A DNA stretch of 32,000 bases from Candidatus Saccharimonadota bacterium (GCF_025273655.1 NZ_CP045921.1:120001-152000); one strand, 5' to 3'. Positions 4,492-29,052 are shown, counted from the first letter of the stretch. The notes: generated by a model from the sequence alone, not told the origin. Numbers and translations are program-made.

Positions 4492-4497
4492 TATACT
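4492..4497 (+). promoter_or_regulatory. TATACT -10 box, 6 nt upstream of the mutM ATG (leaderless-type)
   Basis: gcgcTATACTaggggcATG. There is no room for an SD at functional spacing. Confidence 0.4.
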
Positions 4498-4503
4498 AGG
4501 GGC

Positions 4504-5370
4504 ATGCCAGAACTTCCTGAAGTAGAAACCGTGCGACGTGGACTCGACGGGCTGATTGTGGGTCGCGTTGTCCGTAGCGTTAGTGTGCGTGATTCGCCCA
4601 AAAGTTTTCCGAACGCCCAGGCTGATGTTGACCAGTTTTTCATCGGTGCAGAAATTATCGCTGTGCGCCGTCGCGCCAAAGTATTACTTGTCGATCTCAG
4701 TACCGACTATACTCTCGTGATTCACCTCAAGATGACTGGGCAGCTGGTGTATCGTGGTGAGCAGGTGTTTGGTGCTGGCCACCCAAACGATTCGCTGATT
4801 GGCGAGCTTCCGGACAACTCGACACGTGTTATGATCGAGTTTATGGACAATTCGTGGCTCCATTTTAACGATCAGCGCAAATTTGGCTGGATACGACTTA
4901 TGCCAACTATTGAGGTTCCCAATATTGATTTTATGCAGCGTGTTGGCCCCGAACCCCTTGAGGCAGATTTTACGCCAGAGGAGTTTGCGGCACGATTCAT
5001 ACGTCGTGCCCGCACTAACATCAAGGCAGCATTGCTAGACCAAACTGTCGTAGCGGGCGTGGGTAATATCTATGCCGATGAGTCGCTCTGGGGTGCACGG
5101 ATCAGCCCTAAACGCCTAGTGGCAGAGGTGACACCCGGCGAATTTACCACCCTCTACACAGAACTACGCAGCGTCATGAATCTTGCCATAGAAAAGGGCG
5201 GGAGTACAGATAAAAATTATGTGAACGCCGAGGGAAAACGTGGGAGCTATATGGATTTTGCGCGGGTGTTTCGCCGTGAAGGCGAGGCGTGCCCACGGTG
5301 CGGCGCGACGATAGAAAAGATCAAGTGGGCGGGTAGAGGTACACATCTGTGTCCGAATTGTCAGAAGTAG
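4504..5370 (+). CDS. mutM: Formamidopyrimidine-DNA glycosylase (Fpg/MutM)
   Basis: 288 aa. N-terminal MPELPEVE catalytic signature. C-terminal zinc finger CPRCG...CPNCQK. Confidence 0.95.
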   Translation: MPELPEVETVRRGLDGLIVGRVVRSVSVRDSPKSFPNAQADVDQFFIGAEIIAVRRRAKVLLVDLSTDYTLVIHLKMTGQLVYRGEQVFGAGHPNDSLIGELPDNSTRVMIEFMDNSWLHFNDQRKFGWIRLMPTIEVPNIDFMQRVGPEPLEADFTPEEFAARFIRRARTNIKAALLDQTVVAGVGNIYADESLWGARISPKRLVAEVTPGEFTTLYTELRSVMNLAIEKGGSTDKNYVNAEGKRGSYMDFARVFRREGEACPRCGATIEKIKWAGRGTHLCPNCQK

Positions 5371-5408
5371 CAGTAGTGACACTGGAAGTGGTGGTGCCGA
5401 GTGAAGCC

Positions 5409-5717
5409 ATGCCGTCTAGAAAAATTGAAGAATACGCACATTATTTTGGCAAACTTTCACTACAGGCATCGATCAATAGTATTGAAGCGTACTGTGAGAC
5501 AACACCCGACAAGGACGTTTCGCGAGCGTGGCTACTGAGAGACCGTGCACAGCTTGAATTACTGTTGGGGCAGAGCCGGCATCCACAAGCACACCTGCAT
5601 GGAGCGCTCATGCGTGTGAGTACCGAGATGTGGGCAAGTATGTTTATGCAGAAGTTCGTCCAGGACCGACCGCGGCGACTTCAGGGCGTGACGCAGTCGG
5701 AAATTACCACAGCGTAA
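5409..5717 (+). CDS. Hypothetical protein (start uncertain; the track ORF begins at GTG 5349, overlapping mutM)
   Basis: 102 aa from ATG 5409. No recognisable motif. It fills the mutM-holA gap in the same orientation. Confidence 0.4.
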   Translation: MPSRKIEEYAHYFGKLSLQASINSIEAYCETTPDKDVSRAWLLRDRAQLELLLGQSRHPQAHLHGALMRVSTEMWASMFMQKFVQDRPRRLQGVTQSEITTA

Positions 5718-5719
5718 CG

Positions 5720-5725
5720 TATACT
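5720..5725 (+). promoter_or_regulatory. TATACT -10 box, 7 nt upstream of the holA GTG
   Basis: aacgTATACTagctagaGTG. Confidence 0.35.
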
Positions 5726-5732
5726 AGCTAGA

Positions 5733-7951: not shown

Positions 7952-8341
7952 TTATTTAGCTGCTTTTTTAGCAACAGGCTTCTTAGCAGCTGGTTTTGCG
8001 GTGGTCTTGGTAGCTGCTTTCTTTGGAGCGGCTTTAGCTGTAGCAGGCTTTTTGGCTGCGGCTGGCTTAGCAGTTGCTTTTTTGGCTGCAGTCGGTTTGA
8101 CACCAGCGTCTTTCGCAGCCTTTGCAAGTGCGGCTTTGCGGCGGCTAGCGGTATTTTTCTTGATCAGGCCTTTTTTGACGGCTTTGTCGAGTTCGCTTTG
8201 TGCTTTTGCGGCGGTTTCGGCGGTTGGCTTAACAGCAAAAGCTTTGTTGGCACTTTTGATGTCTTTTTTGATACCGACATTGCGCTCGCGACGCACGATC
8301 GTCTGTTTCATTCGCTTGATAGCACTTTTGATGATTGGCAT
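7952..8341 (-). CDS. rpsT: 30S ribosomal protein S20 with Lys/Ala/Pro-rich C-terminal extension
   Basis: 129 aa. MPIIKSAIKRMKQ...RN S20 signature. About 47 aa of AKKPAAK-type tail. SD GAGG and a TGTATAAT box (8385-8392 on the minus strand) lie upstream. Confidence 0.9.
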   Translation of the reverse strand: MPIIKSAIKRMKQTIVRRERNVGIKKDIKSANKAFAVKPTAETAAKAQSELDKAVKKGLIKKNTASRRKAALAKAAKDAGVKPTAAKKATAKPAAAKKPATAKAAPKKAATKTTAKPAAKKPVAKKAAK

Positions 8342-8435
8342 GTAGGGTTACCTCTTATAAGTTTGTTATTGCAATCAAGAGTGAATTATACAGAAAATCC
8401 GGGGAAATGTAAAGCAGGGGACTCGGGCAATATAG

Positions 8436-10532: not shown

Positions 10533-11219
10533 CTATGTGCGTATGATGAAATGGTTGACTGCCACTTGGTCGCCATGCGCGGCCAAGTGTGCCTCGCCAT
10601 CGCCGCGCTGCGAATGATGACAGCGGATGATATCACGCACTGTGTCTAGTGCTGCGCGGGCATCGACCGTCTCGTTGATCTCACTTAGACTACGTCCGGC
10701 AGGCATGTAGATCCAGTCAATGTTGTGTGTAGGAAACATATCACGCGAGACGCATGCGTAGCGGATGCGACTGAGTGCTAGCCCTTCGCTCTTGAGGGTG
10801 TAGTAGGCGTGTGTGGCTGCGCGCGAGGCAACCGTGTGGTCGATATGGCCGGTGATGCCATTGTCGTCTATTGTCATGAATTCCACTTCGTACTCCCCAC
10901 CATGCTGCGAGGCGATATCGCGCACGATACGAGCAATGCGCTGTTGAGCGTCGATGAGTGTTGTATTGCACAAGCAGCCGTCGTCGTAGCCTAGATGGTG
11001 TGTCGCGGTGGCACCAATCAACTCTGCCGCCGCCTGCCATTCAGCTAGTCGGACTGTACCCAGCTCTATATGTGACTCACTGTTGATGCCTGCCGCTCCA
11101 TTTGTAAGAGTGATGAGGTGGAGCTCAGTGCCGCTCCGTGTCTCAAGCACTAATGTACCGCTCGGCCCGAACGCTTCATCGTCAGGATGTGCGAAGACGG
11201 CAAAGAGGAGTTTTTTCAT
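10533..11219 (-). CDS. PIG-L/LmbE-family N-acetylglucosaminyl deacetylase
   Basis: 228 aa from the internal ATG (MKKLLFAVFAHPDDEAFGPSG, the PIG-L signature), plus HxDH-type motif GHIDH. The 77-codon upstream extension in the track overlaps truB and was trimmed. Confidence 0.85.
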   Translation of the reverse strand: MKKLLFAVFAHPDDEAFGPSGTLVLETRSGTELHLITLTNGAAGINSESHIELGTVRLAEWQAAAELIGATATHHLGYDDGCLCNTTLIDAQQRIARIVRDIASQHGGEYEVEFMTIDDNGITGHIDHTVASRAATHAYYTLKSEGLALSRIRYACVSRDMFPTHNIDWIYMPAGRSLSEINETVDARAALDTVRDIIRCHHSQRGDGEAHLAAHGDQVAVNHFIIRT

Positions 11220-11225
11220 ATATTT

Positions 11226-11233
11226 AGTATACT
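11226..11233. promoter_or_regulatory. Palindromic AGTATACT: shared -10 element for divergent PIG-L and truB
   Basis: It reads TATACT on both strands, 8 nt before the truB ATG (11242) and 6 nt before the PIG-L ATG (11219, minus strand). Confidence 0.45.
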
Positions 11234-11241
11234 TGATAGCG

Positions 11242-11901
11242 ATGACCGACGGAATTATTCTGATAGATAAACCAGCCGATATGACGAGCTTCGGTGTAGT
11301 AGCGCGTGTACGGCGAGTGCTGAGCAAGCAATCTGGCAAAAAGGTCAAGGTGGGGCACTGTGGTACGCTTGATCCGTTTGCAACAGGACTGCTCATACTC
11401 TGCGTCGGCAAAGAGTGTAAAAACGCAGGTACGTATATGAAGCATGACAAGGTCTATGAGGCAACGTTTCGCTTAGGGCAGAAGAGCTCAACTGGTGACC
11501 CTGAAGGCGAACTGATCGACGTTTCTGACAAAGTGCCGACGAGAGATGAGATAGTAGCGGCACTTCAGCAGTTTACCGGTGACATTCAGCAGCGCCCGCC
11601 CATCTTCAGTGCACTTAAGATAGACGGGGTGCGCGCGTACAAGCTGGCGCGTGACGGCCGGAAGGTTGAGATTCCGCTGCGTACAGTGACAATTCATAGT
11701 TTGGAGCTGGTCGACTACAATTATCCAGACCTCAAAGTGCGCACACATGTTAGTAGCGGTACCTACATCCGTAGTCTTGGCGTCGATATAGGCCAGGCGC
11801 TTGGTACGGGTGCCTACTGCAGTCAACTCCGCCGTACGAGTATCGCTGACTGGCAGGTGAGTGACGCACGGGTGCTGGCAGATTTCGGTGTAAGTTCCTA
11901 G
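11242..11901 (+). CDS. truB: tRNA pseudouridine(55) synthase TruB (short form, no obvious PUA domain)
   Basis: 219 aa from ATG 11242. GIILIDKP..MTS and catalytic-Asp motif GHCGTLDPFATGLL. Confidence 0.9.
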   Translation: MTDGIILIDKPADMTSFGVVARVRRVLSKQSGKKVKVGHCGTLDPFATGLLILCVGKECKNAGTYMKHDKVYEATFRLGQKSSTGDPEGELIDVSDKVPTRDEIVAALQQFTGDIQQRPPIFSALKIDGVRAYKLARDGRKVEIPLRTVTIHSLELVDYNYPDLKVRTHVSSGTYIRSLGVDIGQALGTGAYCSQLRRTSIADWQVSDARVLADFGVSS

Positions 11902-12009: not shown

Positions 12010-12038
12010 TTGCAGCCTCTGTAAAAATCTGCTACAAT
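12010..12038 (+). promoter_or_regulatory. rpsO promoter TTGCAG-17-TGcTACAAT
   Basis: -35 at 12010-12015, extended -10 with TACAAT at 12033-12038, and ATG 7 nt downstream (12046). No SD is present. Confidence 0.5.
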
Positions 12039-12045
12039 AGCCCGG

Positions 12046-12312
12046 ATGATTACTAAAGAGAACAAGCAGAAAGCGATTGCTTTGACTCAGGTCAGCAAGA
12101 ACGATGTCGGCAGCCCGCAGGCGCAGGTATCTATCTTGACGGCTCGTATCAAAGAAGTTACAGAGCATCTTAAAGCCAACAAGCATGACTTTATGGCTCG
12201 TCGCGGCTTGGTGCAGATGGTAGGACGCCGCAAGCGTCTCCTCAAATACCTTGAGCGTACTGACTTCGATGCCTACAAGGCAACCGTTTCGAAACTTGGA
12301 CTACGCAAATAG
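12046..12312 (+). CDS. rpsO: 30S ribosomal protein S15
   Basis: 88 aa. GSPQAQVSILTARI..L..HLK.NKHD..RRGL..MVGRRKRLLKYL is the S15 signature. Confidence 0.95.
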   Translation: MITKENKQKAIALTQVSKNDVGSPQAQVSILTARIKEVTEHLKANKHDFMARRGLVQMVGRRKRLLKYLERTDFDAYKATVSKLGLRK

Positions 12313-12320: not shown

Positions 12321-12360
12321 CAAACAAAAAAGTCCCGCCAAGTCGGGACATTTTTGTTTG
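12321..12360 (+). terminator. Rho-independent terminator after rpsO
   Basis: caaacaaaaa-a-gtcccg-ccaagt-cgggac-a-tttttgtttg. GC stem extended by A/T arms, with a T-run following. Confidence 0.8.
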
Positions 12361-12380
12361 ACGTACCTGCTTGGTGAGTC

Positions 12381-12386
12381 TATACT
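12381..12386 (+). promoter_or_regulatory. TATACT -10 box, 9 nt upstream of the pilin ATG
   Basis: gagtcTATACTaaagcctatATG. No SD. Confidence 0.35.
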
Positions 12387-12395
12387 AAAGCCTAT

Positions 12396-13172
12396 ATGAA
12401 GAGCAGGGGTGGATTCACGATTGTTGAGCTGCTTATCGTCGTAGTGGTGATGGGTATTCTCGCATCTATCACGATTGTCGCGTATAACGGGATCCAAGAC
12501 CGGGCTAAAAAAGCTTCCATATCTTTTGCTCTCGTGCAGTATAGTAAAAAAATTGTGACGTATCGCGCCCCGAATGGCACCGAAGAGTATCCACCCAACA
12601 AAGAAGCCGCGGGCGTGCAAGATGCAAACGGTATACAGTATCAGTACATCTCTACTTCTGCAAGCGACTACTGCTTGATGGCAACGAGCGGCTCATTGAA
12701 TTATATTATTTCAAGCACAAACCCGACAGTTCAGGCAGGAACATGTACGGGGTATAATATGCTCGTTTGGGATGAATCATCAAGTAGCGTTCCCATAACA
12801 AGCGGTGTGGCGGATACAAGTACCTATCGTAGTGCCCCAGCTTCAGTACGTATTGCGCCAAACATGACAGGTCGCATGTTGAGTGGTAGCCCCTATAGTG
12901 GCGACGTGGGTCAGACATATACTGTATCGTTATGGGTTAAAAGTGACACAAGCTGGAACGGCACGAATGACAATTCAAAGATACGTTTCGGTAATGGCTC
13001 AAGTGGTACGTTGTTGCAGGCTTGTGGGTATGGGGGCGTGAAGGCCGACTGGACTCAAGTTACATGTAGCTATACGCTTACAACGGGCAATACAAGTGTT
13101 GGTATTAGTGTTGGCAACAGCGGCACCATCGGCAACATCTGGATAGATGATATCTCTGTGTCTCGTACGTAA
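12396..13172 (+). CDS. Type IV pilin-like protein with C-terminal CBM4/9-like (jelly-roll lectin) domain
   Basis: 258 aa. Class III signal peptide MKSRGG/FTIVELLIVVVVMGILASI (Gly-1, Phe+1, Glu+5). The C-terminal half has GQTYTVSLWVKSD...DWTQV...NIWIDDISV, typical of CBM_4_9-type modules. Confidence 0.85.
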   Translation: MKSRGGFTIVELLIVVVVMGILASITIVAYNGIQDRAKKASISFALVQYSKKIVTYRAPNGTEEYPPNKEAAGVQDANGIQYQYISTSASDYCLMATSGSLNYIISSTNPTVQAGTCTGYNMLVWDESSSSVPITSGVADTSTYRSAPASVRIAPNMTGRMLSGSPYSGDVGQTYTVSLWVKSDTSWNGTNDNSKIRFGNGSSGTLLQACGYGGVKADWTQVTCSYTLTTGNTSVGISVGNSGTIGNIWIDDISVSRT

Positions 13173-13206: not shown

Positions 13207-13212
13207 TATAGT
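13207..13212 (+). promoter_or_regulatory. TATAGT -10 box, 7 nt upstream of the LCP ATG
   Basis: ggtTATAGTtcgaggtATG. Confidence 0.35.
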
Positions 13213-13219
13213 TCGAGGT

Positions 13220-14209
13220 ATGAAGATACCTTTGGCTTTCAAAATAATCCTGAGCAGTCTAGTGACACTTGGTGTCGTGGGTGGTGGCGTGTATGTATAT
13301 AGCTTGTATCACACCGCCGATGCGGCGGTAGCAAGCGTAGCGTCGAGCGGTAAACTCACCGACATACTCAAAGCCGAACCTTTAAATGGCGAAGAGACTG
13401 GGCGAGTAAATATATTGATCGCGGGTAATTCGACTGACGATCCGGGACATAGCGGGGCAGAACTGACCGATTCGCTGATGGTGGCGAGTATCGATGTGAC
13501 TACTAAGAAGATTTCACTGGTAAGTATTCCGCGTGATTTGTGGGTAACGTACGACGGTATGAGTACTAAGATCAATGCGGTGTATTTAAGCGGCGGCATG
13601 GACGGGCTGAAATCCGTAGTACAAGAAGTAACGGGTCTGACGATTAATCACACAGTGCTCATGAATTACGGCGCATTGAAAAATATGATCGACACCGTAG
13701 GTGGTATCGATGTGACAATCGAGAGCGATGATCCACGGGGTATCTATGACCCGATGATTGGCTTCAGTGTCGGCAATGGTGTGCAGCACCTCGACGGTAC
13801 ACAGGCGCTGCTGCTGGCGCGGTCACGCAACGATCCGACGTACGATGGGCGCATAGCTTACGGTTTGCCAAACGGCGACTTCGACCGGCAGGCTTACCAG
13901 CGCAAAATTGCCCAGGCGCTACTGACCAAGATCACGCATAGCACAGCCATCGTGAATCCGACCACATTGGCCAAGCTAGTGCAGAGTCTACAGGGCAATG
14001 TGACGACTGATTTGAGCGTAGGGCAGATCCGTCGATTGTACGATCTCGGTACCTCGTCGACACTCTCGCTCGTATCGATTCGTACCGATGCGACCGGTGG
14101 CTCACTCTTGGCGGATTACACTTCATATGATGGCCAGTCGGCATTGGTACCAGCGGCCGGAGCGGGTGTATACTCTGGTATCCAGGCCTATATCGTGTCA
14201 CAATTATGA
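13220..14209 (+). CDS. LytR-CpsA-Psr (LCP) family cell-wall glycopolymer transferase
   Basis: 329 aa. N-terminal TM anchor. LCP core VNILIAGNSTDD...LTDSLMVASID...ISLVSIPRDLWV...KINAVY. Confidence 0.9.
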   Translation: MKIPLAFKIILSSLVTLGVVGGGVYVYSLYHTADAAVASVASSGKLTDILKAEPLNGEETGRVNILIAGNSTDDPGHSGAELTDSLMVASIDVTTKKISLVSIPRDLWVTYDGMSTKINAVYLSGGMDGLKSVVQEVTGLTINHTVLMNYGALKNMIDTVGGIDVTIESDDPRGIYDPMIGFSVGNGVQHLDGTQALLLARSRNDPTYDGRIAYGLPNGDFDRQAYQRKIAQALLTKITHSTAIVNPTTLAKLVQSLQGNVTTDLSVGQIRRLYDLGTSSTLSLVSIRTDATGGSLLADYTSYDGQSALVPAAGAGVYSGIQAYIVSQL

Positions 14210-14941: not shown

Positions 14942-14947
14942 TATACT
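14942..14947 (+). promoter_or_regulatory. TATACT -10 box, 10 nt upstream of ABC ATPase ATG 14958
   Basis: tgtTATACTagtggtcagtATG. GTG 14949 from the track lies only 1 nt after the box. Confidence 0.35.
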
Positions 14948-14957
14948 AGTGGTCAGT

Positions 14958-15887
14958 ATGACACAAGAAACCCCGCAGCCGTTAATCCGGCTGGAGCACG
15001 TGACGAAACGCTACCGTAAATTTAAAGCAGTCGACGATGTGACTTTCGACGTGGCCTCGGGTGAAGTAATTGGTTTTGTAGGTGAAAACGGCGCTGGCAA
15101 GACAACCACGATCAGTATGTTACTTGGATTTATCTCGCCAAATCATGGTACTATCTCTGTCTTTGGCCAGCCTGTAACGCCAGCAAATGCGCATGTGTCG
15201 CATGCACGTATTGGCTATGCTGCCGGTGACATGGAGCTGCCCGAATCAATGACTGGGCGGCAATACATCAAATTTGTGATGACTCAGTCTGGTGGCAAAA
15301 AGCATGCCAAGCGCTATGAAGAGCTCTATAAGATTTTTAAACCACAGCTGGACAAAAAGATCAGCTCGCTATCGCGCGGCAACAAGCAAAAGATAGCGCT
15401 GGTGGCAGCTCTCGTGACACAGCCACAGCTGATCGTGCTCGATGAGCCAACCAGCGGGCTGGACCCCGTGATGCAAGAGGCGTTCCTGGAGACAATCCGA
15501 GACGAATCGGCCCGCGGCACAACTATATTTATGTCGTCGCACTATTTGCAGGAAGTAGCGGAAGTCTGTACGCGCGTGCTACTTATGAAAGAGGGCAAAG
15601 TCGTCGAAGATCTGACACAGATTGACCTAGCTGCACGAGCCGGCAAGACGGTGATGCTACAGACACGTACCGAAGCGCAGGCGCCCAAACATGCCACGGC
15701 TGTTGAGACGAAACGAGTAGGTGAATTGTATGAGTTGAGTTTTAGCTACACTGGTCATGTAGATGCGCTGCTAGCGTGGGTAGCTGAGCAAAAAAACGTG
15801 GCCGATATCGAGATTACCGAACGTACACTCGAAGAAGAGTTTAAACATATCTACAACGACAAGAAACCGGAGACCGACGATGAATAG
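14958..15887 (+). CDS. ABC transporter ATP-binding protein (ABC-2 exporter type)
   Basis: Walker A GENGAGKTTT, signature LSRGNKQKIAL, Walker B LIVLDEPTSGLD. The start is ATG 14958 (preferred) or GTG 14949. Confidence 0.9.
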   Translation: MTQETPQPLIRLEHVTKRYRKFKAVDDVTFDVASGEVIGFVGENGAGKTTTISMLLGFISPNHGTISVFGQPVTPANAHVSHARIGYAAGDMELPESMTGRQYIKFVMTQSGGKKHAKRYEELYKIFKPQLDKKISSLSRGNKQKIALVAALVTQPQLIVLDEPTSGLDPVMQEAFLETIRDESARGTTIFMSSHYLQEVAEVCTRVLLMKEGKVVEDLTQIDLAARAGKTVMLQTRTEAQAPKHATAVETKRVGELYELSFSYTGHVDALLAWVAEQKNVADIEITERTLEEEFKHIYNDKKPETDDE

Positions 15888-17584: not shown

Positions 17585-17591
17585 GACCTGC

Positions 17592-18733: not shown

Positions 18734-18874
18734 GCATGAGTCTATCTGTAGCAATCATGCGCCAGGCACGATATAATGGAAGAGTATTAATAGCGGACGG
18801 TGATAGAGATAAAAGTTTACAGTCCTGAACTTTTTCCCCTGTTACTCTCCGCACAACCAAGAAGGGAGTAGAAT

Positions 18875-20986
18875 ATGTCTACTATCAATCCAAATGGCAA
18901 AGAAATTATCTCTGTCAGTACTGAGCTGGCCGGCAAGACGCTGACACTCGAAGTCAACCGCGTCGGGTTCCGCACCACTGCGAGTGTACTTGTAAAATAC
19001 GGTGACACCGTAGTGCTCGGTACGACGCAAATCGGCAGCCGCCCGGTCAAGCTCGATTATTTCCCACTCAGTGTGGATTATGAAGAAAAAATGTATGCAG
19101 CTGGCAAAATTAGTGGCAGCCGCTTCATCAAACGCGAAGGTCGCCCGAGTGACGAAGCCATCCTGATTGGTCGCATTATCGATCGACCGATTCGTCCACT
19201 GTTTCCAAAAGGCTTCCGTGCCGAAGTGCAGGTGGTGGCGAGCGTCCTTAGTATGGACCCAAGCTTCCGCCCAGACATGGTGGCGATGATCGCTGCGAGC
19301 TCAGCTCTCTCTATCAGCGGCGCACCGTTTGACGGCCCAGTGGCTGGTCTGCGCGTGGGTCGCGTCAATGGTGAGTTCAAAGCATTCCTGAGTCCGGAAG
19401 AACGCGAGCAGAGCGACCTCGACCTCGTGGTAGCTGGCATCGAAAGCGGTGTCGTGATGGTAGAGGCAGGTGCTGACCAAGTTGACGAGGAAGTCGTGAT
19501 CGACGCGATCGCGTGGGCTCACGAAGCTATGCAGCCGGCGATTGCCCTGCAGAAAGAATTGGCCGCCAAGGTTGCCAAAGAGGCCATGGAGTATGAACTC
19601 GTGCTGCCAAACGAAGCTATCCAGACAGAGGTAGACGAGTGGACTCACGAGAAGCTTGGTACCAAACTCCACCGTCCATACCCGGAGCGCAACGAAATGG
19701 TCAACGAACTGCGTTGGAGCTTCCACGAAGAGATGACTACCAAGCACGGCGACGAGTATGAAGCACTGCACGACGAATACGACGAAGCGTTCACAATGTC
19801 GCTCCACAAAGACGTGCGCCGCGGTATTGTAGAATCACAGACGCGTCCAGACGGACGCAAGCTCGACGAGATTCGCCCACTCAGTAGCGAAGTGGGTATA
19901 TTGCCACGCACACACGGTTCAAGCATCTTCACCCGTGGTGTCACGCAGGGCATGAACATTGTCACGCTGGCGCCACTGAGCTACGCGCAAATCGTCGACA
20001 CGATGGAAGTGAGCGACGGCGAACGTCGCTACATGCACCACTACAATGCCCCTGGCTACACGGTTGGTGAAGTGCGTCGCCTTGGTAGTCCAGGCCGTCG
20101 CGAAATTGGCCATGGCTACTTGGCGGAGCGTGCTGTACTGCCAGTCCTGCCGACTGAGGAAGAGTTTCCATATGCTATCCGCAGTGTGACAGAAATAATG
20201 AGCCAAAATGGTTCAACATCGATGGCCGCCACCTGCTCGAGCGTGTTAGCGCTCATGGATGCTGGCGTGCCAATCAAGGCGCCGGTGTCCGGTATCGCCA
20301 TGGGATTGATGATGGACGGTGAAACACCGTACGTGCTGAGTGACATCGCCGATGCCGAAGACTTCGCGGGTGATATGGATTTCAAGGTAACAGGTACTGC
20401 CAAGGGCATTACCGCCGTGCAGATGGACATGAAGTTGCATGGACTGCCGGTAGAAGTATTAGCGCAGGCTATTCGCACCTCCACACCAGGTCGCGCACAT
20501 ATCCTCGAGCACATGCTCACGACACTGGCGGCACCTAAGCCAACACTGAGCCCATATGCACCGCGTATTGAGAAGATTAAGATCAACCCAGATAAGATCG
20601 GTGCGGTGATAGGCAAGGGCGGTGAAGTGATCAACAAGATTACCGCCGAGACCGGTGCCATGATCGATATCAAAGAGGACGGCTTAATCACTGTAGCTGC
20701 TGCTGATACCAAGAACATTGAAAAGGCACTCGACTGGATCCGTAGTCTTACCGAGGAACCAGAAGTGGGTCGTATCTACGAAGGCAAGGTTGTGACAATC
20801 AAAGACTTCGGCGCATTTGTGAACATCCTGCCTGGTATTGATGGCATGGTACACATCTCGCAGCTCAGTGATAGTAGAGTCGAAAATGTGACGGATGTAC
20901 TAAGCGAAGGTCAGATAGTGAAGGTGAAGCTGACTGGTATCGATGAGCGCGGACGCTTGAGTCTTTCGGTTAAGGACGCAGAGTAA
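18875..20986 (+). CDS. pnp: Polyribonucleotide nucleotidyltransferase (PNPase)
   Basis: 703 aa. Two RNase PH-like domains, a KH region (IGAVIGKGGEVINKI) and an S1 domain (GKVVTIKDFGAFVNILPGIDGMVHISQL). SD AAGGGAG. Confidence 0.97.
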   Translation: MSTINPNGKEIISVSTELAGKTLTLEVNRVGFRTTASVLVKYGDTVVLGTTQIGSRPVKLDYFPLSVDYEEKMYAAGKISGSRFIKREGRPSDEAILIGRIIDRPIRPLFPKGFRAEVQVVASVLSMDPSFRPDMVAMIAASSALSISGAPFDGPVAGLRVGRVNGEFKAFLSPEEREQSDLDLVVAGIESGVVMVEAGADQVDEEVVIDAIAWAHEAMQPAIALQKELAAKVAKEAMEYELVLPNEAIQTEVDEWTHEKLGTKLHRPYPERNEMVNELRWSFHEEMTTKHGDEYEALHDEYDEAFTMSLHKDVRRGIVESQTRPDGRKLDEIRPLSSEVGILPRTHGSSIFTRGVTQGMNIVTLAPLSYAQIVDTMEVSDGERRYMHHYNAPGYTVGEVRRLGSPGRREIGHGYLAERAVLPVLPTEEEFPYAIRSVTEIMSQNGSTSMAATCSSVLALMDAGVPIKAPVSGIAMGLMMDGETPYVLSDIADAEDFAGDMDFKVTGTAKGITAVQMDMKLHGLPVEVLAQAIRTSTPGRAHILEHMLTTLAAPKPTLSPYAPRIEKIKINPDKIGAVIGKGGEVINKITAETGAMIDIKEDGLITVAAADTKNIEKALDWIRSLTEEPEVGRIYEGKVVTIKDFGAFVNILPGIDGMVHISQLSDSRVENVTDVLSEGQIVKVKLTGIDERGRLSLSVKDAE

Positions 20987-21034: not shown

Positions 21035-22198
21035 CTACTTTAACCACGGCCACTTTTTGGTTTTAGGCTGGGTTGAATCTGATGCCTGGTCAGGAAGTTT
21101 GACGTGTTTCACGCCCTGTGCCTGGTCAGTAAGTTGCTGTTGCATAGCCGCTTGGCGCTCTGGTGTAGCGATGTCGAGGGTGAAGCTGAAGGTGGAACCT
21201 TGACCGAGCGTGGATTGTTTGAGATAAATATCCCCGCCCATGTGGTGCATGATAAGCTTTGTAATGTAGAGCCCGAGCCCAGTGCTTTTAGATGAGTCGC
21301 CGCGAAGTGGATTATTGGATGTTTGGAAGAATTTGCCAAAGAGAGACGCTTGTTCTTCTGGTGGGATACCCGCACCGCTGTCTGTCACGGAAACTTCGAT
21401 CATGGTGGGACTCGCGGCAAGCGAGATAGTTATGCTACCAGCTTGAGTGAATTTGATAGCATTGCTCACAAGATTGGTCAGGACTTCACGCACCTTGGCT
21501 GGGTCGCCGACGACAGGGTAGCCAAGTAACTCAGACTGTTGCACGGAGAGGGCAAGATTACGCTGCTGTACGAGCACTGTGAGTGGTTGTACAGCTTCTG
21601 TGATAAGCGCGCCAATTTGTACGACCTGGAGATCAAACGTCGCGCGGCCATCTTCAAGTCGAGCCATCTCCAGGATGCTGTTTACCATATTGAGTACATC
21701 TTCGCTGCCGCTACGCACGAAACCGATGAGCTGCCTTGGCACTTCTTCAGCAAAGAGCTGGCTGAAATCTTCTTGGAGTAGTGATGCGTTGCCACGCACA
21801 GCAGTAAGCGGCGTGCGGAGTTCGTGGACGAGGGCAGGGATAAGCTTGGCGCTTTGATCACTTGATTTATCGTGAATAGAGAGCAGCCGTCCGAGAAGCT
21901 TACTCTGTTCGTCGAAGATCGGGGACAAGTAGACTGACAGATGTGATTCGTGTACGTCGAGATCTCCAAAGTTGCAGGTTAACCGGTTAGGTCCACAATG
22001 GATGACGTGTTCCATGAACTGTGTGTGCTGTGGCAATACACTTGCGATTTCGTGCAGATCCGTCGGTTCGCCTTGAACTCCAAGAAGCTGTCTTGCTTTA
22101 TCATTGATGCGTGTAATTTTATACTGATTATCAGCAATAATCACTCCGTAGTCGAGGTAATCCGTGGAGCGGGCGAGTGTATCAAGTATTGTGCTCAT
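21035..22198 (-). CDS. Cytoplasmic sensor histidine kinase (PAS-like N-terminus, HisKA, HATPase_c)
   Basis: 387 aa. H-box LVHELRTPLTAV. N, G1 and G2 boxes NLVSNAIKF, DSGAGI, GLGLYITK. No TM segment. Confidence 0.9.
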   Translation of the reverse strand: MSTILDTLARSTDYLDYGVIIADNQYKITRINDKARQLLGVQGEPTDLHEIASVLPQHTQFMEHVIHCGPNRLTCNFGDLDVHESHLSVYLSPIFDEQSKLLGRLLSIHDKSSDQSAKLIPALVHELRTPLTAVRGNASLLQEDFSQLFAEEVPRQLIGFVRSGSEDVLNMVNSILEMARLEDGRATFDLQVVQIGALITEAVQPLTVLVQQRNLALSVQQSELLGYPVVGDPAKVREVLTNLVSNAIKFTQAGSITISLAASPTMIEVSVTDSGAGIPPEEQASLFGKFFQTSNNPLRGDSSKSTGLGLYITKLIMHHMGGDIYLKQSTLGQGSTFSFTLDIATPERQAAMQQQLTDQAQGVKHVKLPDQASDSTQPKTKKWPWLK

Positions 22199-22208
22199 GC
22201 TTGTTGGT

Positions 22209-22214
22209 AGTATA
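22209..22214 (-). promoter_or_regulatory. TATACT -10 box (minus strand), 10 nt upstream of the histidine kinase ATG
   Basis: The minus strand reads cttATACTaccaacaagcATG, with TATACT spanning 22214 to 22209. Confidence 0.35.
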
Positions 22215-22251
22215 AGCTACTCATACGAGAGTCGCAAACGAGCAAATCTAG

Positions 22252-22257
22252 TATACT
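22252..22257 (+). promoter_or_regulatory. TATACT -10 box, 9 nt upstream of the UDG ATG
   Basis: tctagTATACTtgatcatatATG. Confidence 0.35.
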
Positions 22258-22266
22258 TGATCATAT

Positions 22267-22839
22267 ATGGATACACTATCGACGCTCGATGAGCTGCGGC
22301 AACAGTTACTTACACAAAAAATCTGTCCCAATCTGGCGGCGAGTGCGACACAACTAGTAATGGGCGATGGTAACCCGGATGCTGATATTGTGTTTGTTGG
22401 AGAAGCACCAGGTAAGGCAGAGGACGAACAGGGGTTGCCATTTGTAGGGGCAAGCGGGCGTTTTCTGAACGAGATGCTCGAAGCGGCAGGGCTAGTGCGC
22501 AGAGATGTGTACATCACAAATATCGTGAAGTATCGACCGCCAAATAACCGTGACCCCACACCGGAAGAAAAGCGCGAATTTTGGCCATATCTCATGCGCC
22601 AGCTCGAAATTATCAATCCAAAAGTCGTCATTACCCTGGGGCGACACAGTGGAATGTGCTTTATCCCGGATCTGCATATTTCGCGTGACCATGGTCATGC
22701 ACGCAAGGTGAAATATCGTGAACATGAATTCCTCGTGATACCGCTCTATCATCCTGCGGCAGCATTGTATAACGGCGGGATGCGGCAGACGCTCATAGAT
22801 GACTTTTTGGCAGCGGCGAAGCTGGCAGAAACCACCTAG
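22267..22839 (+). CDS. Uracil-DNA glycosylase, family 4-type
   Basis: 190 aa. Motif A VGEAPG..ED and PFVG.SG. C-terminal HP motif (LYHPAA). Confidence 0.85.
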   Translation: MDTLSTLDELRQQLLTQKICPNLAASATQLVMGDGNPDADIVFVGEAPGKAEDEQGLPFVGASGRFLNEMLEAAGLVRRDVYITNIVKYRPPNNRDPTPEEKREFWPYLMRQLEIINPKVVITLGRHSGMCFIPDLHISRDHGHARKVKYREHEFLVIPLYHPAAALYNGGMRQTLIDDFLAAAKLAETT

Positions 22840-23401: not shown

Positions 23402-23531
23402 AAGAGTACTTTCAAAGGGGAAACGACCGAACACTGACCACCCAATCCTCGCATATTTAATACGCATATTACCTAAATGATACAACTCAGCAATCCACGA
23501 AAGTACTTGCTGAAAAGGAGAAACAAACTAT

Positions 23532-25691
23532 ATGGGTCAACGAAGACTCTCAAACGCTCAATCAGATGATCTGAGCAAGCGCCCTGCATCTGGGCAACCA
23601 AAGAAAAAATCTAACATCGCCGCACTGAACCAGACAAGCACACGCAAGGGCGAAGTGTTCCGTGCACAGCGCCGCACTAGCGAAAACGTCAATGTCCGCG
23701 CCAGCCAGCACATGATCGATGTGCCAGTGAACAAATCTATCTACAACGGCTACGACGGTCGCCAGTTTAGCACAGCTGAGTGGAAGCGCCAGCCCCGTAC
23801 CAAAGGTCCAGTGCTCAAGGTGATGCCTATCGGTGGTCTCGGCGAGATGGGTATCGGCAAAAACATGATGGCGATCGAATACGACAACGACATTATCGTG
23901 GTGGACTGTGGCTTCTTGTTCCCAGGCAGCGACTACCCGGGCATCAACTACATCACCCCGGATATCACCTATCTGCTCGAAAACAAGCACAAGGTGCGCG
24001 CTTGGGTGTTCACTCATGGTCACCTCGATCATATCGGTGCCTTCCGTCACATTATTCATCAGCTGCCTGCACCTGTGTATGGTAGTAAATTCACGCTGGC
24101 CATGGTCAAACGCACTATGGAAGAGGCCACAAGTGGCTACGAACCTGCGTACAACGAGATGGATCCAGAATCACATGAGCGCGTGCAAATCGGCGATAGC
24201 TTCAATATCGAGCTTGTCCGAGTGAATCACTCCATTCCAGATGCGACTGCTGTCGTGATCCGCACTCCTATGGGTGTCCTAGTCGACACTGGTGACTGGC
24301 GTTTCGAAGAAAATCCTGTCGATGGCAAGAAGTTCGATCTGGAACGCCTGACAGAAATCAGTGCCAAAGAAGGCATCCTGATGCTTATGAACGAGTCGAC
24401 CAACTGCGAAAGCGAAGGTACGCACAATCACGGTGAGCCGGAGATCCAAGCGAGCCTCGGCCAGGTGATGGAGAAGTATCCAAGCAATCGCCTCATCATC
24501 AGCTGCTTTAGCTCGCAGCTTCACCGTATGCAGGGTATTTTGGACGAGGCAAAGAAGAGCGGTCGCAAAGTCGCTTTCGCCGGTTATAGTATGATCCAGA
24601 ACGTCGAAGTAGGCCTACGCACCGGTGTGATCAAAGTGCCAAAAGACGTGGTAGTGAAGATGGAAGACATCGTGAAGATGCCCGATGGCAAAGTTACCAT
24701 CGTCTGTACTGGTAGCCAGGGCGAGTTCAACGCTGTGCTCAACCGTATGGCATCTGGTGCTCACAAACACATCAAGATCAAAAACAGCGACGTCGTCGTC
24801 TTTAGCTCCAACCCGATTCCGGGCAACGAGAAGTATGTGGTACGCACAGTCGATGGTCTCATGCGCGAGGGTAGTGACGTGGTGCAAAACGGCAAATCAC
24901 ACCTTACTGGCGTCGGCCCACTCCATCTTAGTGGTCATGGCTACTACGATGATCACGTCAAACTTATCAGTGCGTTGAACCCTACGTACTACATGCCAAT
25001 TCATGGTGAATTTCATATGCTGGTGCATAATGCCGAGCTGGCTGAGAAAGAATGCGCCATCCCACGCAGCAATATCTTTGTTTGCGACAGTGGCGATGTT
25101 ATCGAAATTACTGCCGATGGTGCCAAGAAAAACGGCCGTATCCCGGTCGGTGGCATCATGTACGATGACAGCGGCGCAGTCGTATCGGAAGTAGTCCTCA
25201 AAGACCGTATTCATATGTCTCAGGAAGGTATGTTTGTGGTGGTGCTAACAGTGCACAAGGGAAGCGGTCGCTTGCTCACAAGCCCGGATATCATCAGCCG
25301 CGGCTTTATCTACCTGCGCGATAGCGAGGAGCTGATGAATTTGATGCGTCAGTATTTGAAGCAAAAAGTGCAGCGCAGCTTCGGTGGCAGGCGCCCTGAT
25401 ATGGATCAGCTGAAGAAGGAGCTGAAAGACGAAATTACACACCTCCTCTATGACCAGACGCGTCGTACACCGATCGTGATTCCTGTTATCAACGAGATTG
25501 GTGGTGGGGGTGGCCAGCAGCAGGGTGGCGGTAACCGCGATAATCGTCAACAGCGTGGCAATAATCGCCCAGCGACCGACGGTCAAGTGAAGCCATTTGC
25601 GGCGCCAGCAGCCAAGAAGTTTCCGCCAAAGCAAGTGCCAGACAGCGATGCAATCGAGCCTCGCGCCAAGGCTGATACGCGCGGCTACTAG
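23532..25691 (+). CDS. rnj: Ribonuclease J with N- and C-terminal low-complexity extensions
   Basis: 719 aa. Metallo-beta-lactamase motif THGHLDHIG, beta-CASP region, and collinearity with B. subtilis RNase J1 from MPIGGLGEMG onward. SD AAGGAG. Confidence 0.95.
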   Translation: MGQRRLSNAQSDDLSKRPASGQPKKKSNIAALNQTSTRKGEVFRAQRRTSENVNVRASQHMIDVPVNKSIYNGYDGRQFSTAEWKRQPRTKGPVLKVMPIGGLGEMGIGKNMMAIEYDNDIIVVDCGFLFPGSDYPGINYITPDITYLLENKHKVRAWVFTHGHLDHIGAFRHIIHQLPAPVYGSKFTLAMVKRTMEEATSGYEPAYNEMDPESHERVQIGDSFNIELVRVNHSIPDATAVVIRTPMGVLVDTGDWRFEENPVDGKKFDLERLTEISAKEGILMLMNESTNCESEGTHNHGEPEIQASLGQVMEKYPSNRLIISCFSSQLHRMQGILDEAKKSGRKVAFAGYSMIQNVEVGLRTGVIKVPKDVVVKMEDIVKMPDGKVTIVCTGSQGEFNAVLNRMASGAHKHIKIKNSDVVVFSSNPIPGNEKYVVRTVDGLMREGSDVVQNGKSHLTGVGPLHLSGHGYYDDHVKLISALNPTYYMPIHGEFHMLVHNAELAEKECAIPRSNIFVCDSGDVIEITADGAKKNGRIPVGGIMYDDSGAVVSEVVLKDRIHMSQEGMFVVVLTVHKGSGRLLTSPDIISRGFIYLRDSEELMNLMRQYLKQKVQRSFGGRRPDMDQLKKELKDEITHLLYDQTRRTPIVIPVINEIGGGGGQQQGGGNRDNRQQRGNNRPATDGQVKPFAAPAAKKFPPKQVPDSDAIEPRAKADTRGY

Positions 25692-26579: not shown

Positions 26580-26652
26580 GTCCTATCCTTTTGGTTGTCG
26601 GGACGTACCTGTAGAGTAGGTGGTGATGCGCTAAGATGCAACCATAAGAAGC

Positions 26653-26681
26653 TTGCAAATTGTGGTATTTTGTGCTACAAT
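26653..26681 (+). promoter_or_regulatory. Candidate distal ftsK promoter TTGCAA-17-TGcTACAAT
   Basis: -35 at 26653-26658 and TACAAT at 26676-26681, with the TG motif at 26673-26674. Confidence 0.45.
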
Positions 26682-26753
26682 ACAAACATTCGCCGCAGAG
26701 TAGCGTAGGAAATAACACCACGTCCACCTGCACGAAACCGACAAAAACAGTAG

Positions 26754-26759
26754 TATACT
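26754..26759 (+). promoter_or_regulatory. TATACT -10 box (within palindrome TAGTATACTA), 7 nt upstream of the ftsK ATG
   Basis: cagTAGTATACTAgagctaATG. Confidence 0.4.
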
Positions 26760-26766
26760 AGAGCTA

Positions 26767-29052
26767 ATGGCAAAAAAGAAGAAAACCACTAGGGGTAAAA
26801 AAGCTGCACCGTCCAAGCCACAACACATGTTGCCGGCTGGTTTTTGGGCGCAAGTTGGCGCCGTAGCGCTCATCGTCGTTTCGATACTCTATATTGTGGC
26901 GTGGTTTGGCGCGGGCGGGCCGGTGCTCGATTGGGTGCAAGCGATGAGCCTGGAGTTTATCGGTTATGCGGTCTATGTGCTGCCAATCTTATTTACGTAC
27001 CTGGCTGTGGAGACTTTCCGCGCTAGTAACAACAAACTGGCGCTCATGACCAAACTTTCAACTGCACTTCTGGTAGTGTGGTGTGCCGGTCTCTTTGGGC
27101 TTATGCAAGATGGTTCAGGTAATGCTACTGGTGGCTGGGTGGGCGCTACACTCAATGATAATGTCATGCTGCCGATGGTGAGCCCGACCGTAGCAGGGTT
27201 TATCTATGTGGTTCTCATCGTTATCACCGTGCTATTTGTACTGCGCGTGTCGCCGTTTACTGTTATCAGTCGTGTCTGGGGTTGGATTAGTACCAATATG
27301 CGCGAAGAAGAGCGTACCAACAAAGAGGTGATCAAAAAAGCAAATGCAGAAGAAGCGACCAAAAGCACTGGTATTCGCTTGAAGTTTGGTGGCAGTGAAA
27401 AAGACAAAAAAGACGAAGACAAATCGAACGATATCGCCGAGCTCAAACTCAAAGGTATGGTGACAGCCGATGCCGAGGAAGAGAAACCAAAACCACGCCT
27501 GTCGAGCCTACGTGGTAGTGTCCAGCAGGACAAGGTTGCCGAGGAGAAGCAGGCACTAGTAGCTGTTAACGACCCGAACTGGCAGGCACCAAGTCTCGAT
27601 CTACTAGAAAAGAAGCAGAAACCAGCCGATCCAGGTGATGTCCAGCAGAGTGCTCAGACGATCAAAGATACTTTGAGCGAGTTCAACATCGATGTGGAGA
27701 TGGAAGGTGCCAATGTCGGACCAAAGGTGACGCAATATACACTCAAGCCGCCAAGTGGTGTCAAACTGACCCGTATTACGGCATTGGAGACCAATATCGC
27801 ACTCAATCTGGCTGCGCAGAGTTTGCGTATGGAAGCGCCAATTCCTGGTCAAAAAGCTGTGGGCATTGAAGTGCCAAACTTGCGTGCGGCCGACGTGCGT
27901 TTGTACGGCATTCTGGAATCCAAGCAGTGGAAGACGAGTACCCAGCCGCTCAGTTTTGCGATAGGTAAGGATATCTCTGGTCATGCCGTAGTCGGCGAGC
28001 TCAACAAGATGCCCCACTTGCTGATTGCCGGTCAGACGGGCTCTGGTAAATCTGTGATGATCAATACGCTTCTGACGAGCTTGCTCTACCGCAATAGTCC
28101 GAGCCAGATGAAGCTGATTTTGGTGGATCCGAAGCAGGTCGAGATGGCACCGTACGAAGACATTCCGCATCTGCTGACACCAGTGATCAACGAGCCTGAA
28201 AAGACCGTAAGTGCACTCAAATGGGCTGTCAATGAGATGGAGCGCCGCTACAAATTGCTGGCCGAAGAAAAGGTGCGTGAGATAGAGAGTTACAATAAGC
28301 GTTTGGCGCAGCGTGGTCGCAAAATCTCCGTCGAAGACGAAGAAGGTAATATGCAGGAGCACGAAGAGGGCACAATGCCGTACATCGTAATCGTAATCGA
28401 CGAGCTGGCTGACCTGATGATGCTGGCAGCTCGCGATGTAGAGGCGCTGATCGTGCGCCTAGCGCAGAAGGCTCGTGCTGTTGGTATCCACCTGGTATTG
28501 GCGACGCAGCGTCCGAGTGTCAATGTCATCACCGGCCTTATCAAAGCCAACGTACCGGCGCGTATCGCCTTTACAGTGGCGAGTCAGGTGGACAGCCGTA
28601 CGATTCTGGATGTGATGGGCGCCGAGAAGCTGCTCGGCCAGGGTGATATGCTCATGAAGACTGCTCAGATGGGCAAACCGAAGCGCGTGCAGGGCGCGTG
28701 GGTGACGGATGAAGAGGTGCTCAAGATTACCGATCATCTGCGCATGCAGAGCGCACCGCAGTATAACGACGAGATTGTGGCGCAGCCCGTGCAGCTCAAC
28801 GGCAAGGGTGGTGTGGTGATGGATTTCGACAGTGACGGTACTGATGATATGTACAAAGATGCCGTGCGCGTGGTGGTAGAGAGTAAAAAGGCGAGCACGA
28901 GCTTGCTGCAGCGTCGTCTACGTATTGGCTACGCACGCGCTGCTCGTGTGATCGAAGAGCTCGAGGAACAAGGCGTAATCGGACCGGCTGACGGTGCCCG
29001 TCCTCGCGAGGTGCTGATTAGTAGTCTTGACGACCTTAACAGTGGTGAATAA
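26767..29052 (+). CDS. ftsK: DNA translocase FtsK/SpoIIIE
   Basis: 761 aa. N-terminal TM helices and a charged linker. Motor domain with Walker A GQTGSGKS and Walker B VIVIDELAD. C-terminal gamma winged-helix LLQRRLRIGYARAARVIEELE. Confidence 0.95.
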   Translation: MAKKKKTTRGKKAAPSKPQHMLPAGFWAQVGAVALIVVSILYIVAWFGAGGPVLDWVQAMSLEFIGYAVYVLPILFTYLAVETFRASNNKLALMTKLSTALLVVWCAGLFGLMQDGSGNATGGWVGATLNDNVMLPMVSPTVAGFIYVVLIVITVLFVLRVSPFTVISRVWGWISTNMREEERTNKEVIKKANAEEATKSTGIRLKFGGSEKDKKDEDKSNDIAELKLKGMVTADAEEEKPKPRLSSLRGSVQQDKVAEEKQALVAVNDPNWQAPSLDLLEKKQKPADPGDVQQSAQTIKDTLSEFNIDVEMEGANVGPKVTQYTLKPPSGVKLTRITALETNIALNLAAQSLRMEAPIPGQKAVGIEVPNLRAADVRLYGILESKQWKTSTQPLSFAIGKDISGHAVVGELNKMPHLLIAGQTGSGKSVMINTLLTSLLYRNSPSQMKLILVDPKQVEMAPYEDIPHLLTPVINEPEKTVSALKWAVNEMERRYKLLAEEKVREIESYNKRLAQRGRKISVEDEEGNMQEHEEGTMPYIVIVIDELADLMMLAARDVEALIVRLAQKARAVGIHLVLATQRPSVNVITGLIKANVPARIAFTVASQVDSRTILDVMGAEKLLGQGDMLMKTAQMGKPKRVQGAWVTDEEVLKITDHLRMQSAPQYNDEIVAQPVQLNGKGGVVMDFDSDGTDDMYKDAVRVVVESKKASTSLLQRRLRIGYARAARVIEELEEQGVIGPADGARPREVLISSLDDLNSGE

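Follow-up and report, generated by a model that had tools for sequence, protein, structure and literature searches.

Predicted leaderless and near-leaderless gene starts next to -10 promoter boxes in Saccharibacteria

The classical leaderless messenger is the lambda cI mRNA transcribed from PRM, which starts on the A of its AUG and is translated independently of a Shine-Dalgarno (SD) sequence. A leaderless organization on a larger scale is described for group C of the GeneMarkS-2 classification, where the first gene of an operon has a Pribnow box 6-8 nt ahead of its start, SD sequences are used elsewhere and 25-50% of the operons are leaderless (PMC6028130). Group C holds about 22% of the bacterial species, chiefly Actinobacteria and Deinococcus-Thermus (PMC6028130). 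In Deinococcus deserti, transcripts with a very short 5′ untranslated region (5′ UTR) are reported to be efficiently translated and have been grouped with the leaderless mRNAs (PMC4007540). Here we analyze a stretch of 32 kb (GC content about 52%) from a genome of Saccharibacteria (TM7), a lineage of the Candidate Phyla Radiation (CPR). In this stretch, which we call the window, twelve start codons are closely preceded by a -10-like hexamer such as TATACT, and an initial annotation had suggested that about a third of the genes are leaderless.

We suggest that these hexamers are the -10 elements of housekeeping promoters of the sigma-70 type. With 6-7 nt between hexamer and start codon, transcription would begin on the A of the start codon, and with 8-10 nt it would begin 1-4 nt before it. 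The resulting mRNAs would have neither a usable 5′ UTR nor an SD sequence. Their translation would therefore have to follow the leaderless route, with ribosome and initiator tRNA binding to the 5′-terminal AUG. The remaining genes would either have a similar promoter 25-140 nt upstream together with an SD of the GGAGG type, or would lie 0-15 nt from the preceding gene and depend on an SD or on translational coupling. The leaderless habit would be lineage-wide in Saccharibacteria and would permit very short intergenic spacers, and at some divergent gene pairs a single 8-bp palindrome (AGTATACT) could provide the -10 element for both genes. We consider it highly probable that these boxes drive the transcription of most of the twelve genes and that the leaders measure 0-4 nt. 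The position and composition of the box, its flanking signals and its conservation are read directly from the sequences, and from them we infer the transcription start sites (TSSs) and the mode of ribosome recruitment.

The box in the window and in 80 species

The twelve hexamers and start codons are found at exactly the positions listed in the initial annotation, and Pfam verified the identity of all twelve genes. The distances given below count the nucleotides which separate the last base of the hexamer from the start codon, and orthologue counts refer to the comparison set described further below.

4492..4506, plus strand: mutM, -10 TATACT, 6 nt, ATG (TATACTAGGGGCATG); the box lies inside the 18-nt gap after the upstream stop codon
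5720..5735, plus strand: holA, -10 TATACT, 7 nt, GTG; earliest start in the open reading frame (ORF)
11217..11231, minus strand: PIG-L deacetylase, -10 TATACT, 6 nt, ATG; box in 11/11 orthologues, TATACT in 10
11228..11244, plus strand: truB, -10 TATACT, 8 nt, ATG; N-terminus MTDGIILIDKP conserved
12010..12048, plus strand: rpsO promoter and start, TTGCAG, 17 nt, TGcTACAAT, 7 nt, ATG
12358..12398, plus strand: type IV pilin promoter and start, TTGACG, 17 nt, TATACT, 9 nt, ATG; 10/12 consensus matches, N_methyl motif from residue 1
13207..13222, plus strand: LCP (LytR-CpsA-Psr), -10 TATAGT, 7 nt, ATG; earliest start in the ORF
14942..14960, plus strand: ABC ATPase, TGtTATACT, 10 nt, ATG; box in 10/16 orthologues
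17576..17594, plus strand: ASCH-domain gene, extended -10 TGgTATAAT, 7 nt, ATG; start supported by orthologue N-termini
22196..22237, minus strand: histidine kinase promoter and start, TTGCGA, 17 nt, TATACT, 10 nt, ATG; 9/12 consensus matches
22250..22269, plus strand: UDG, AGTATACT (-10 TATACT at 22252), 9 nt, ATG; 27/51 orthologues with box, mostly at a spacing of 6 nt
26751..26769, plus strand: ftsK, TAGTATACTA (-10 TATACT at 26754), 7 nt, ATG; 18/18 orthologues with box, N-terminus MAKK conserved

When the box is defined as TA[TCG]ANT ending 6-10 nt before the start codon, 12 of the 35 curated gene starts in the window are box-positive (binomial p = 4e-16). This is indeed about a third of the genes, compared to a mean of 0.71 starts (maximum 6) in 20,000 trials with shuffled upstream 40-mers. 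Only 9 of the 935 ATGs which are not gene starts (0.96%) carry a box. The hexamer TATACT occurs 24 times in the window and 9 of these copies sit 6-10 nt before a gene start; dinucleotide-preserving shuffles contain 10.65 +/- 3.4 copies, and 24 copies were reached in none of 100 shuffles.

Eleven of the twelve start codons are ATG and one is GTG, and several of the SD genes in the window begin with GTG. In eight cases the claimed start is the earliest possible start codon of the ORF, and automatic gene calls concur for ten genes (mutM, holA, PIG-L, truB, rpsO, pilin, LCP, histidine kinase, UDG and ftsK). The start of mutM is set by the N-terminal M-P-E-L typical of the family, the Fapy_DNA_glyco profile being aligned from position 1. 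For the ABC ATPase the claimed ATG lies three codons 3′ of the earliest possible start, a GTG at 14949. The ASCH gene is given in public calls as a protein of 155 aa from 17502, which is 30 codons too long; the supported form has 125 aa and begins at 17592. A conserved MT[ITD]WESGRES forms the N-terminus of all the ASCH orthologues. A -10 box precedes the start by 6-9 nt in three of the four, and the remaining one (in L019) has an in-frame stop two codons upstream of the start. The N-termini of the orthologues and this in-frame stop therefore uphold the start at 17592. The statement that the twelve starts lack an SD sequence is correct for ten of them, while mutM (AGGGG) and LCP (GAGGT) carry an SD-like G-run which ends 0-1 nt before the ATG. 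By the established rules of SD spacing this is too close to function.

As a proxy for a genome-wide test we used a comparison set of 80 Saccharibacteria loci (L003-L082, 1.44 Mb in total, one per species). They were picked via the best PNPase relatives (66-89% identity) and are labelled almost all as Saccharibacteria, TM7 or Saccharimonadales. The distance histogram of TATACT to start codons, which had been proposed for the complete genome, was made on these loci and displays a sharp enrichment with its peak at 6 nt. At this spacing, and with a start codon opening an ORF of at least 100 codons, we count 43 instances of TATACT, 61 of TATAAT and 21 of TACAAT, with a shoulder that reaches as far as 10 nt. 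These counts stand over a background of about 2-8 per position, and the profile stays flat when the hexamers are permuted. A stricter definition (TA[TCG]A[ACT]T, ORFs of at least 150 aa, n = 1018, naive first start codon) yields 81, 24, 27, 24 and 20 cases at spacings of 6, 7, 8, 9 and 10 nt over a background of about 5 per position. If any start within the first 40 codons is allowed, 24% of the genes are box-positive versus 6-8% at control offsets, and with the hexamer defined strictly this excess corresponds to about one long gene in six. At a spacing of 6 nt, the 7th base beyond the -10 element, at the canonical +1 position, is the A of the ATG; across bacteria the TSS is centred 7 bp 3′ of the -10 element (PMC12641261). 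The preference for a particular hexamer is clade-specific, as TATACT makes up 13 of the 26 boxes in the seven closest relatives and TATAAT dominates elsewhere in the phylum.

We then aligned the 176 box cases on the hexamer and read the flanking signals at positions which had not been selected for. An extended -10 element is evident, with T in 64% and G in 64% of the cases at -3/-2 from the hexamer, as compared to 12% TG next to the same hexamers anywhere in the 80 loci. T and G are also enriched at -23 and -21 from the hexamer, corresponding to a 17-bp spacer, and a TTG at -35 with a spacer of 16-18 bp is found in 34-48% of the box cases versus 9.5% in the same background. A pyrimidine occupies position -1 in 77%, and the start codons are ATG in 90%, GTG in 7% and TTG in 3%. 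The TG, the TTG at -35 and the pyrimidine at -1 are features of sigma-70 promoters, which would act on the DNA and not on the mRNA. They are particularly frequent where the box lies 15-60 nt behind a co-directional gene (TG 76%, -35 TTG 48%).

Sequence identical to the window is present on metagenomic contigs of 79 and 97 kb and on one contig of more than 1 Mb. We also scanned the DNA of the same genome on both sides of the window, over 10 kb on the left and 7 kb on the right. The gene for polA (L084 4455-4540, about 5.4 kb left of the window) has TATACT, 6 nt and ATG. The public call places the start of polA at an internal ATG behind a GAGGG, 20 codons too far downstream, and thereby cuts off the start of its 5′-nuclease domain: the 5_3_exonuc_N profile is matched from position 1 with 174.7 bits when the box-adjacent ATG is used and from position 22 with 147.5 bits otherwise. 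Boxes at 6 nt are also found at an AAA_33 kinase-like gene (TGcTACAAT) and at two hypothetical genes (TGaTACAGT and TTGACT-17-TGaCACAAT), and tlyA is probably box-adjacent as well. A rpoD gene with sigma regions 1.2, 2, 3 and 4 adjoins the left side of the window.

A few gene models in the window are uncertain. The GH16 gene (6630-7826, minus strand) codes for 398 aa, or for 220 aa in the public calls, and two small plus-strand ORFs (7387-7889) face its 5′ part. A protein of 680 aa (8456, plus strand) may begin at 8510 instead (662 aa, SD AAGGA). Neither of these two alternative models has a -10 box adjoining its start.

Two initiation regimes

The initial annotation further held that two regimes of translation initiation coexist, with an SD sequence on rpsT, rpsF, ssb, pnp, rnj, the SGNH hydrolase gene and the hypothetical genes at 1488, 2147 and 2769. 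All of these contrast genes do carry an SD, and the coexistence is borne out by a mutual exclusion of box and SD as well as by the conservation within gene families. Among the long genes of the 80 loci an SD-like motif precedes only 3 of the 176 box genes versus 286 of the 842 others (p = 7e-24), an exclusion which is partly geometric as both elements would take the same bases. Five of the contrast genes of the window are these:

8339..8356, minus strand: rpsT (gene 7952-8341), SD AAGAGGT, 8 nt, ATG; TGTATAAT promoter upstream
18862..18877, plus strand: pnp, SD AAGGGAG, 6 nt, ATG; structured leader (about 90 nt) ahead of the SD
23515..23534, plus strand: rnj, SD AAGGAG, 11 nt, ATG; promoter TTGACT-17-TATCAT at 23373-23401
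31122..31135, minus strand: SGNH hydrolase, SD GAGGAGG, 4 nt, ATG; TACAAT upstream
31292..31308, plus strand: rpsF, SD GAGGAGG, 7 nt, GTG

The same type of promoter is found 25-140 nt upstream of the SD genes rpsT, pnp, rnj, SDR, rpsF and SGNH.

The choice of the regime is to a large extent a property of the gene. For the following families we counted, within the 80 loci, the orthologues with a box and those with an SD-like motif ahead of the start.

rpsO: box 62/68, SD-like 6
ftsK: box 18/18, SD-like 1
PIG-L: box 11/11, SD-like 0
truB: box 33/55, SD-like 11
UDG: box 27/51, SD-like 6
holA: box 17/35, SD-like 11
ABC ATPase: box 10/16, SD-like 3
mutM: box 6/23, SD-like 16
pnp: box 0/80, SD-like 79
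rnj: box 0/47, SD-like 46
rpsF: box 0/27, SD-like 26

For several genes the initiation regime is thus conserved, rpsO being predicted to be leaderless and pnp, rnj and rpsF being predicted to keep their leaders.

The regime also follows the distance to the preceding gene. A first test for operon-internal genes relied on any open frame of 100 or more codons with its end near the start, and it revealed no depletion of the box. Since such a test may also count antisense shadows of divergent genes, we regarded it as unreliable and replaced it by an analysis of the neighboring genes in co-directional pairs of the 80 loci.

overlap with the previous gene: box 3.5%, SD-like 25%
gap of 0-15 nt: box 8%, SD-like 48%
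gap of 15-30 nt: box 35%, SD-like 6.5%
gap of 30-60 nt: box 40%, SD-like 23.5%
gap of 120-300 nt: box 4%, SD-like 50%

Box genes are thus concentrated at gaps of 15-60 nt, and the box falls to background level below 15 nt and beyond 120 nt, where the SD genes prevail. In the short gaps of 15-60 nt the -35 region consequently falls inside the 3′ end of the upstream gene.

Two of the leadered genes deserve a closer description. Upstream of pnp (window 18772-18877) lies a conserved promoter with TATAAT at 18772. The leader behind it spans about 90 nt, contains a long-range stem and is followed by the SD. The stem is formed by GGUGAUAG and CUGUUACU and hardly varies among 16 species: six of the eight pairs are identical in all 16 and two alternate between A-U and G-U. 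The stem is lengthened by inner pairs with compensatory changes (8 pairs, RNAalifold), and an outer stem GCGGA/UCCGC covaries by eye (GUAGA/UCUAC, GCAGA/UCUGC, GCGAA/UUCGC). No Rfam family matches the pnp leader, and at gathering thresholds no known RNA family of Rfam matches anywhere in the window. The pnp leader found here may be analogous to the RNase III-cleaved hairpin by which pnp is autoregulated. At rnj, two divergent leadered promoters stand back to back at 23336-23401, TTGACT-17-TATAAT for a 126-aa gene (minus strand, 23364-23336) and the rnj promoter on the plus strand; their -35 boxes are 8 bp apart, and the rnj leader extends over about 125 nt ahead of the SD.

The rpsO unit and divergent promoters

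In E. coli, S15 regulates the translation of its own gene rpsO via a pseudoknot in the 5′ UTR. The initial annotation had pointed out that a leaderless rpsO would be notable for this reason. The architecture in fact holds phylum-wide, with a box in 62 of the 68 orthologues; no match to the S15-leader RNA family of Rfam is found at E <= 10 in 11880-12400. Across the orthologues the consensus is TTGaca-17-TGnTAnAAT and the spacer sequences have freely diverged. The -35 TTG is present in 60 and the TG in 59 of the 62 box-positive orthologues, most of which have a spacing of 9 nt. In the window the gene is closed by an intrinsic terminator:

12332..12359, plus strand: terminator after rpsO, stem GTCCCG/CGGGAC, then a T-run

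With its own promoter and terminator rpsO appears to be a monocistronic unit of about 310 nt which is essentially leaderless. The E. coli gene is likewise monocistronic with its own promoter and terminator. Here, however, only 7 nt separate the -10 element from the ATG, which leaves no room for a structure in the 5′ UTR, and a feedback by S15 could therefore not work as in E. coli. The T-run of the terminator merges into the -35 element (TTGACG, 12358) of the pilin promoter, and terminator and promoter thus share bases in a spacer of 83 nt (window 12332-12386).

Concerning the palindromic context of the box, the sequence TAGTATACTA is present at 26751-26760 as had been claimed. The more general claim, that the box is often embedded in a palindrome, stands for specific divergent promoters and does not hold as a general feature of the box. 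We also considered whether AGTATACT is a generally over-represented motif, for example a transcription-factor site, and rejected this, since its 26 copies in 1.44 Mb are similar to those of other AT-rich palindromic 8-mers. Its most conspicuous occurrence is between PIG-L and truB:

11226..11233, both strands: palindrome AGTATACT with two overlapping -10 hexamers, common to the divergent genes PIG-L and truB

The start codons of the two genes are only 22-23 nt apart. This layout recurs in 8 other species, although the identity of PIG-L drops to 38-54%. Throughout the 80 loci, opposed pairs of box, start and long ORF cluster at 20-24 nt between the start codons, and most of the clustered pairs share a central AGTATACT or AGTATAAT. 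Unrelated pairs adopt the same layout, among them a folP-like gene and UDG in L007 and a hypothetical gene and ASCH in L008. It appears that one palindromic -10 element, AGTATACT, serves two divergent genes which are predicted to be leaderless.

The boxes of UDG and ftsK have minus-strand TATACT partners as well (22250-22255 and 26752-26757), which could drive leftward transcripts. The former could yield a second, leadered transcript toward the histidine kinase gene, and the latter a transcript toward an SD-bearing gene of 138 aa which starts at 26579, with about 165 nt of leader.

Symmetry-based bidirectional promoters have been described as a class defined by TSSs 7-25 bp apart (Warman et al., bioRxiv 10.1101/2020.01.31.928960). 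In the dominant configuration in E. coli the divergent TSSs are 18 bp apart and positions 2 and 6 of the opposed hexamers are base-paired (bioRxiv 10.1101/2020.01.31.928960). The promoters found here resemble this class in that the -10 hexamers of opposite strands overlap in one short symmetric sequence and the predicted TSSs lie within 7-25 bp. They do not match the dominant configuration: the two hexamers, which have TATA in common, are shifted by 2 bp against each other, and about 21 bp lie between the predicted TSSs. They differ further in that both products are predicted to be leaderless mRNAs of conserved protein-coding genes and that the intergenic region has just 20-24 bp. The arrangement at AGTATACT, with its TSSs as predicted, is a different configuration of the same principle.

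Alternative explanations and comparison with known systems

The view that the hexamers are -10 elements giving rise to leaderless genes is supported by the peak in the spacing, by the flanking promoter signals and by the conservation within gene families. Several observations weigh against it. A TG extension is found in only three of the twelve window boxes and a good -35 element in few, so that the promoter strength in this species would have to be determined chiefly by the hexamer. Where the spacing is 9-10 nt (pilin, UDG, ABC ATPase, histidine kinase and most rpsO orthologues), the implied leaders measure 2-4 nt and the mRNAs are not strictly leaderless. Since co-directional genes end only 18 nt before mutM and 15 nt before holA, read-through transcripts may carry both genes too, and the orthologues of mutM mostly have an SD. 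The start codons chosen for LCP and the histidine kinase lack support from orthologues. Finally, we found in the literature searched no TSS, ribosome-profiling or N-terminal proteomic evidence for any Saccharibacteria. A generic scan for two-hexamer promoters recovers only the promoters of pilin and histidine kinase among the twelve; such a scan is of little use as a test here because most of the twelve have no good -35 element.

The alternative which survives best is that the boxes are real but minor internal promoters. Several of the genes, especially mutM, holA, LCP and ABC ATPase, would then be expressed mainly by polycistronic read-through, with SD-less re-initiation or coupling. The gaps before these four genes are short (18, 15, 47 and 38 nt) and no terminator-like site was found in them, whereas one was found after rpsO, and the prevalence of the SD among the mutM orthologues fits this explanation as well. 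On the other hand, it is the short-gap boxes which phylum-wide bear the strongest promoter signals (76% TG, 48% -35 TTG), the genes at gaps below 15 nt, where coupling would be expected, are without a box, and a read-through mRNA would offer the four genes no SD at a workable distance. In our view this explanation is unlikely.

A second possibility is that the hexamer acts in the mRNA, as a non-SD ribosome binding site or enhancer of the kind seen in GeneMarkS-2 group B, and that the mRNAs have ordinary leaders. The hexamer lies roughly at the distance of a ribosome binding site, and non-SD motifs of this kind are used by about 10% of the bacterial genomes (495 of 4769; PMC6028130). This would leave unexplained why signals which are meaningful only in DNA are enriched, namely the TG at -15/-14, the TTG with a spacer of 16-18 bp and the pyrimidine/purine at -1/+1. 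Group B motifs precede all genes, whereas the motif is missing here before tightly packed internal genes; the SD genes of the window have the same type of hexamer far upstream; and the palindromic version works for both strands at divergent pairs. We regard a role of the hexamer in the mRNA as very improbable. That the pattern arises by chance or composition, from AT-rich intergenic DNA and starts picked to fit, retains practically no probability: the starts in the initial annotation were picked by eye and that of ASCH departs from the public calls, yet the shuffles give 0.7 box-positive starts against the 12 observed, eight of the twelve starts are the earliest in their ORF, the automatic calls concur for ten and the orthologues back that of ASCH, and this explanation is refuted by the shuffle test together with the spacing peak and the orthologue conservation in 80 species, which are independent of those choices.

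Leaderless genes in Saccharibacteria or other CPR bacteria are not reported in the full-text literature which we searched, apart from mentions in reference lists and one remark on YchF. A preprint on the transcriptome of N. lyticus TM7x makes no mention of TSSs, UTRs or promoters, and a 2025 study in Nucleic Acids Research inferred 188 TM7x TSSs from RNA-seq. A study on CPR ribosomes discusses the loss of the anti-SD sequence in some Parcubacteria and not leaderless genes. The leaderless architecture itself is known in bacteria, and what would be new is its occurrence in Saccharibacteria and thus in the CPR. We slightly favor the broader view that initiation with leaders of 0-4 nt is a hitherto unreported, ancestral and phylum-wide mode of Saccharibacteria, which includes a leaderless rpsO, nested promoters and a minimal bidirectional unit. 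If this is true, rpsO would be leaderless in about 90% of the species and hence free of a 5′-UTR-based feedback by S15. Promoters would lie within the final codons of the gene before them, so that spacers of 15-60 nt become possible, and one 8-bp palindrome, AGTATACT, would serve as the -10 element for two leaderless mRNAs with the control region squeezed to 20-24 bp. The leaderless trait would in this way be tied to genome compaction, via short spacers and promoters within neighboring genes.

There are also practical consequences. Gene callers which expect an SD would misplace the starts of box genes, and this could explain systematic errors in CPR annotation. Such errors could be widespread, as nearly every CPR genome has been annotated by automatic means. 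Saccharibacteria have become transformable only recently, and the cassettes in use borrow the whole "promoter regions" of tuf and rpsJ (PMC10633639). A leaderless promoter of 35-45 bp, or a bidirectional one of 22 bp, could be a compact and predictable part for Saccharibacteria genetics. One may speculate that a regime common to these bacteria and their leaderless-rich actinobacterial hosts eases the expression of exchanged genes. For the specialist the addition of the CPR to the leaderless-rich bacterial lineages might be unsurprising in kind, yet it is useful; the most distinctive details are in our view the conserved bidirectional leaderless unit of 20-24 bp and the leaderless rpsO.

In summary, the genes described here are most similar to those of group C, known from Mycobacterium, Corynebacterium, Streptomyces and Deinococcus-Thermus, as they have a Pribnow-type -10 element near the start, no SD on those genes and SD sequences elsewhere. 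All features by which group C is recognized at the sequence level are present, that is, a localized -10 element, flanking signals at the DNA level, the split between box and SD genes and a predicted 5′-terminal ATG or GTG. The lineage is a different one, Saccharibacteria of the CPR, which are epibionts with genomes of about 1 Mb, and many of the units lie 15-60 nt behind the previous gene. The consensus is also fuller, TGnTATAAT or TATACT and often with a -35 element, whereas the leaderless consensus of Actinobacteria is a loose TAnnnT. Compared to lambda cI in E. coli, which is a single exceptional transcript, the leaderless starts of Saccharibacteria would represent a genome-wide regime.

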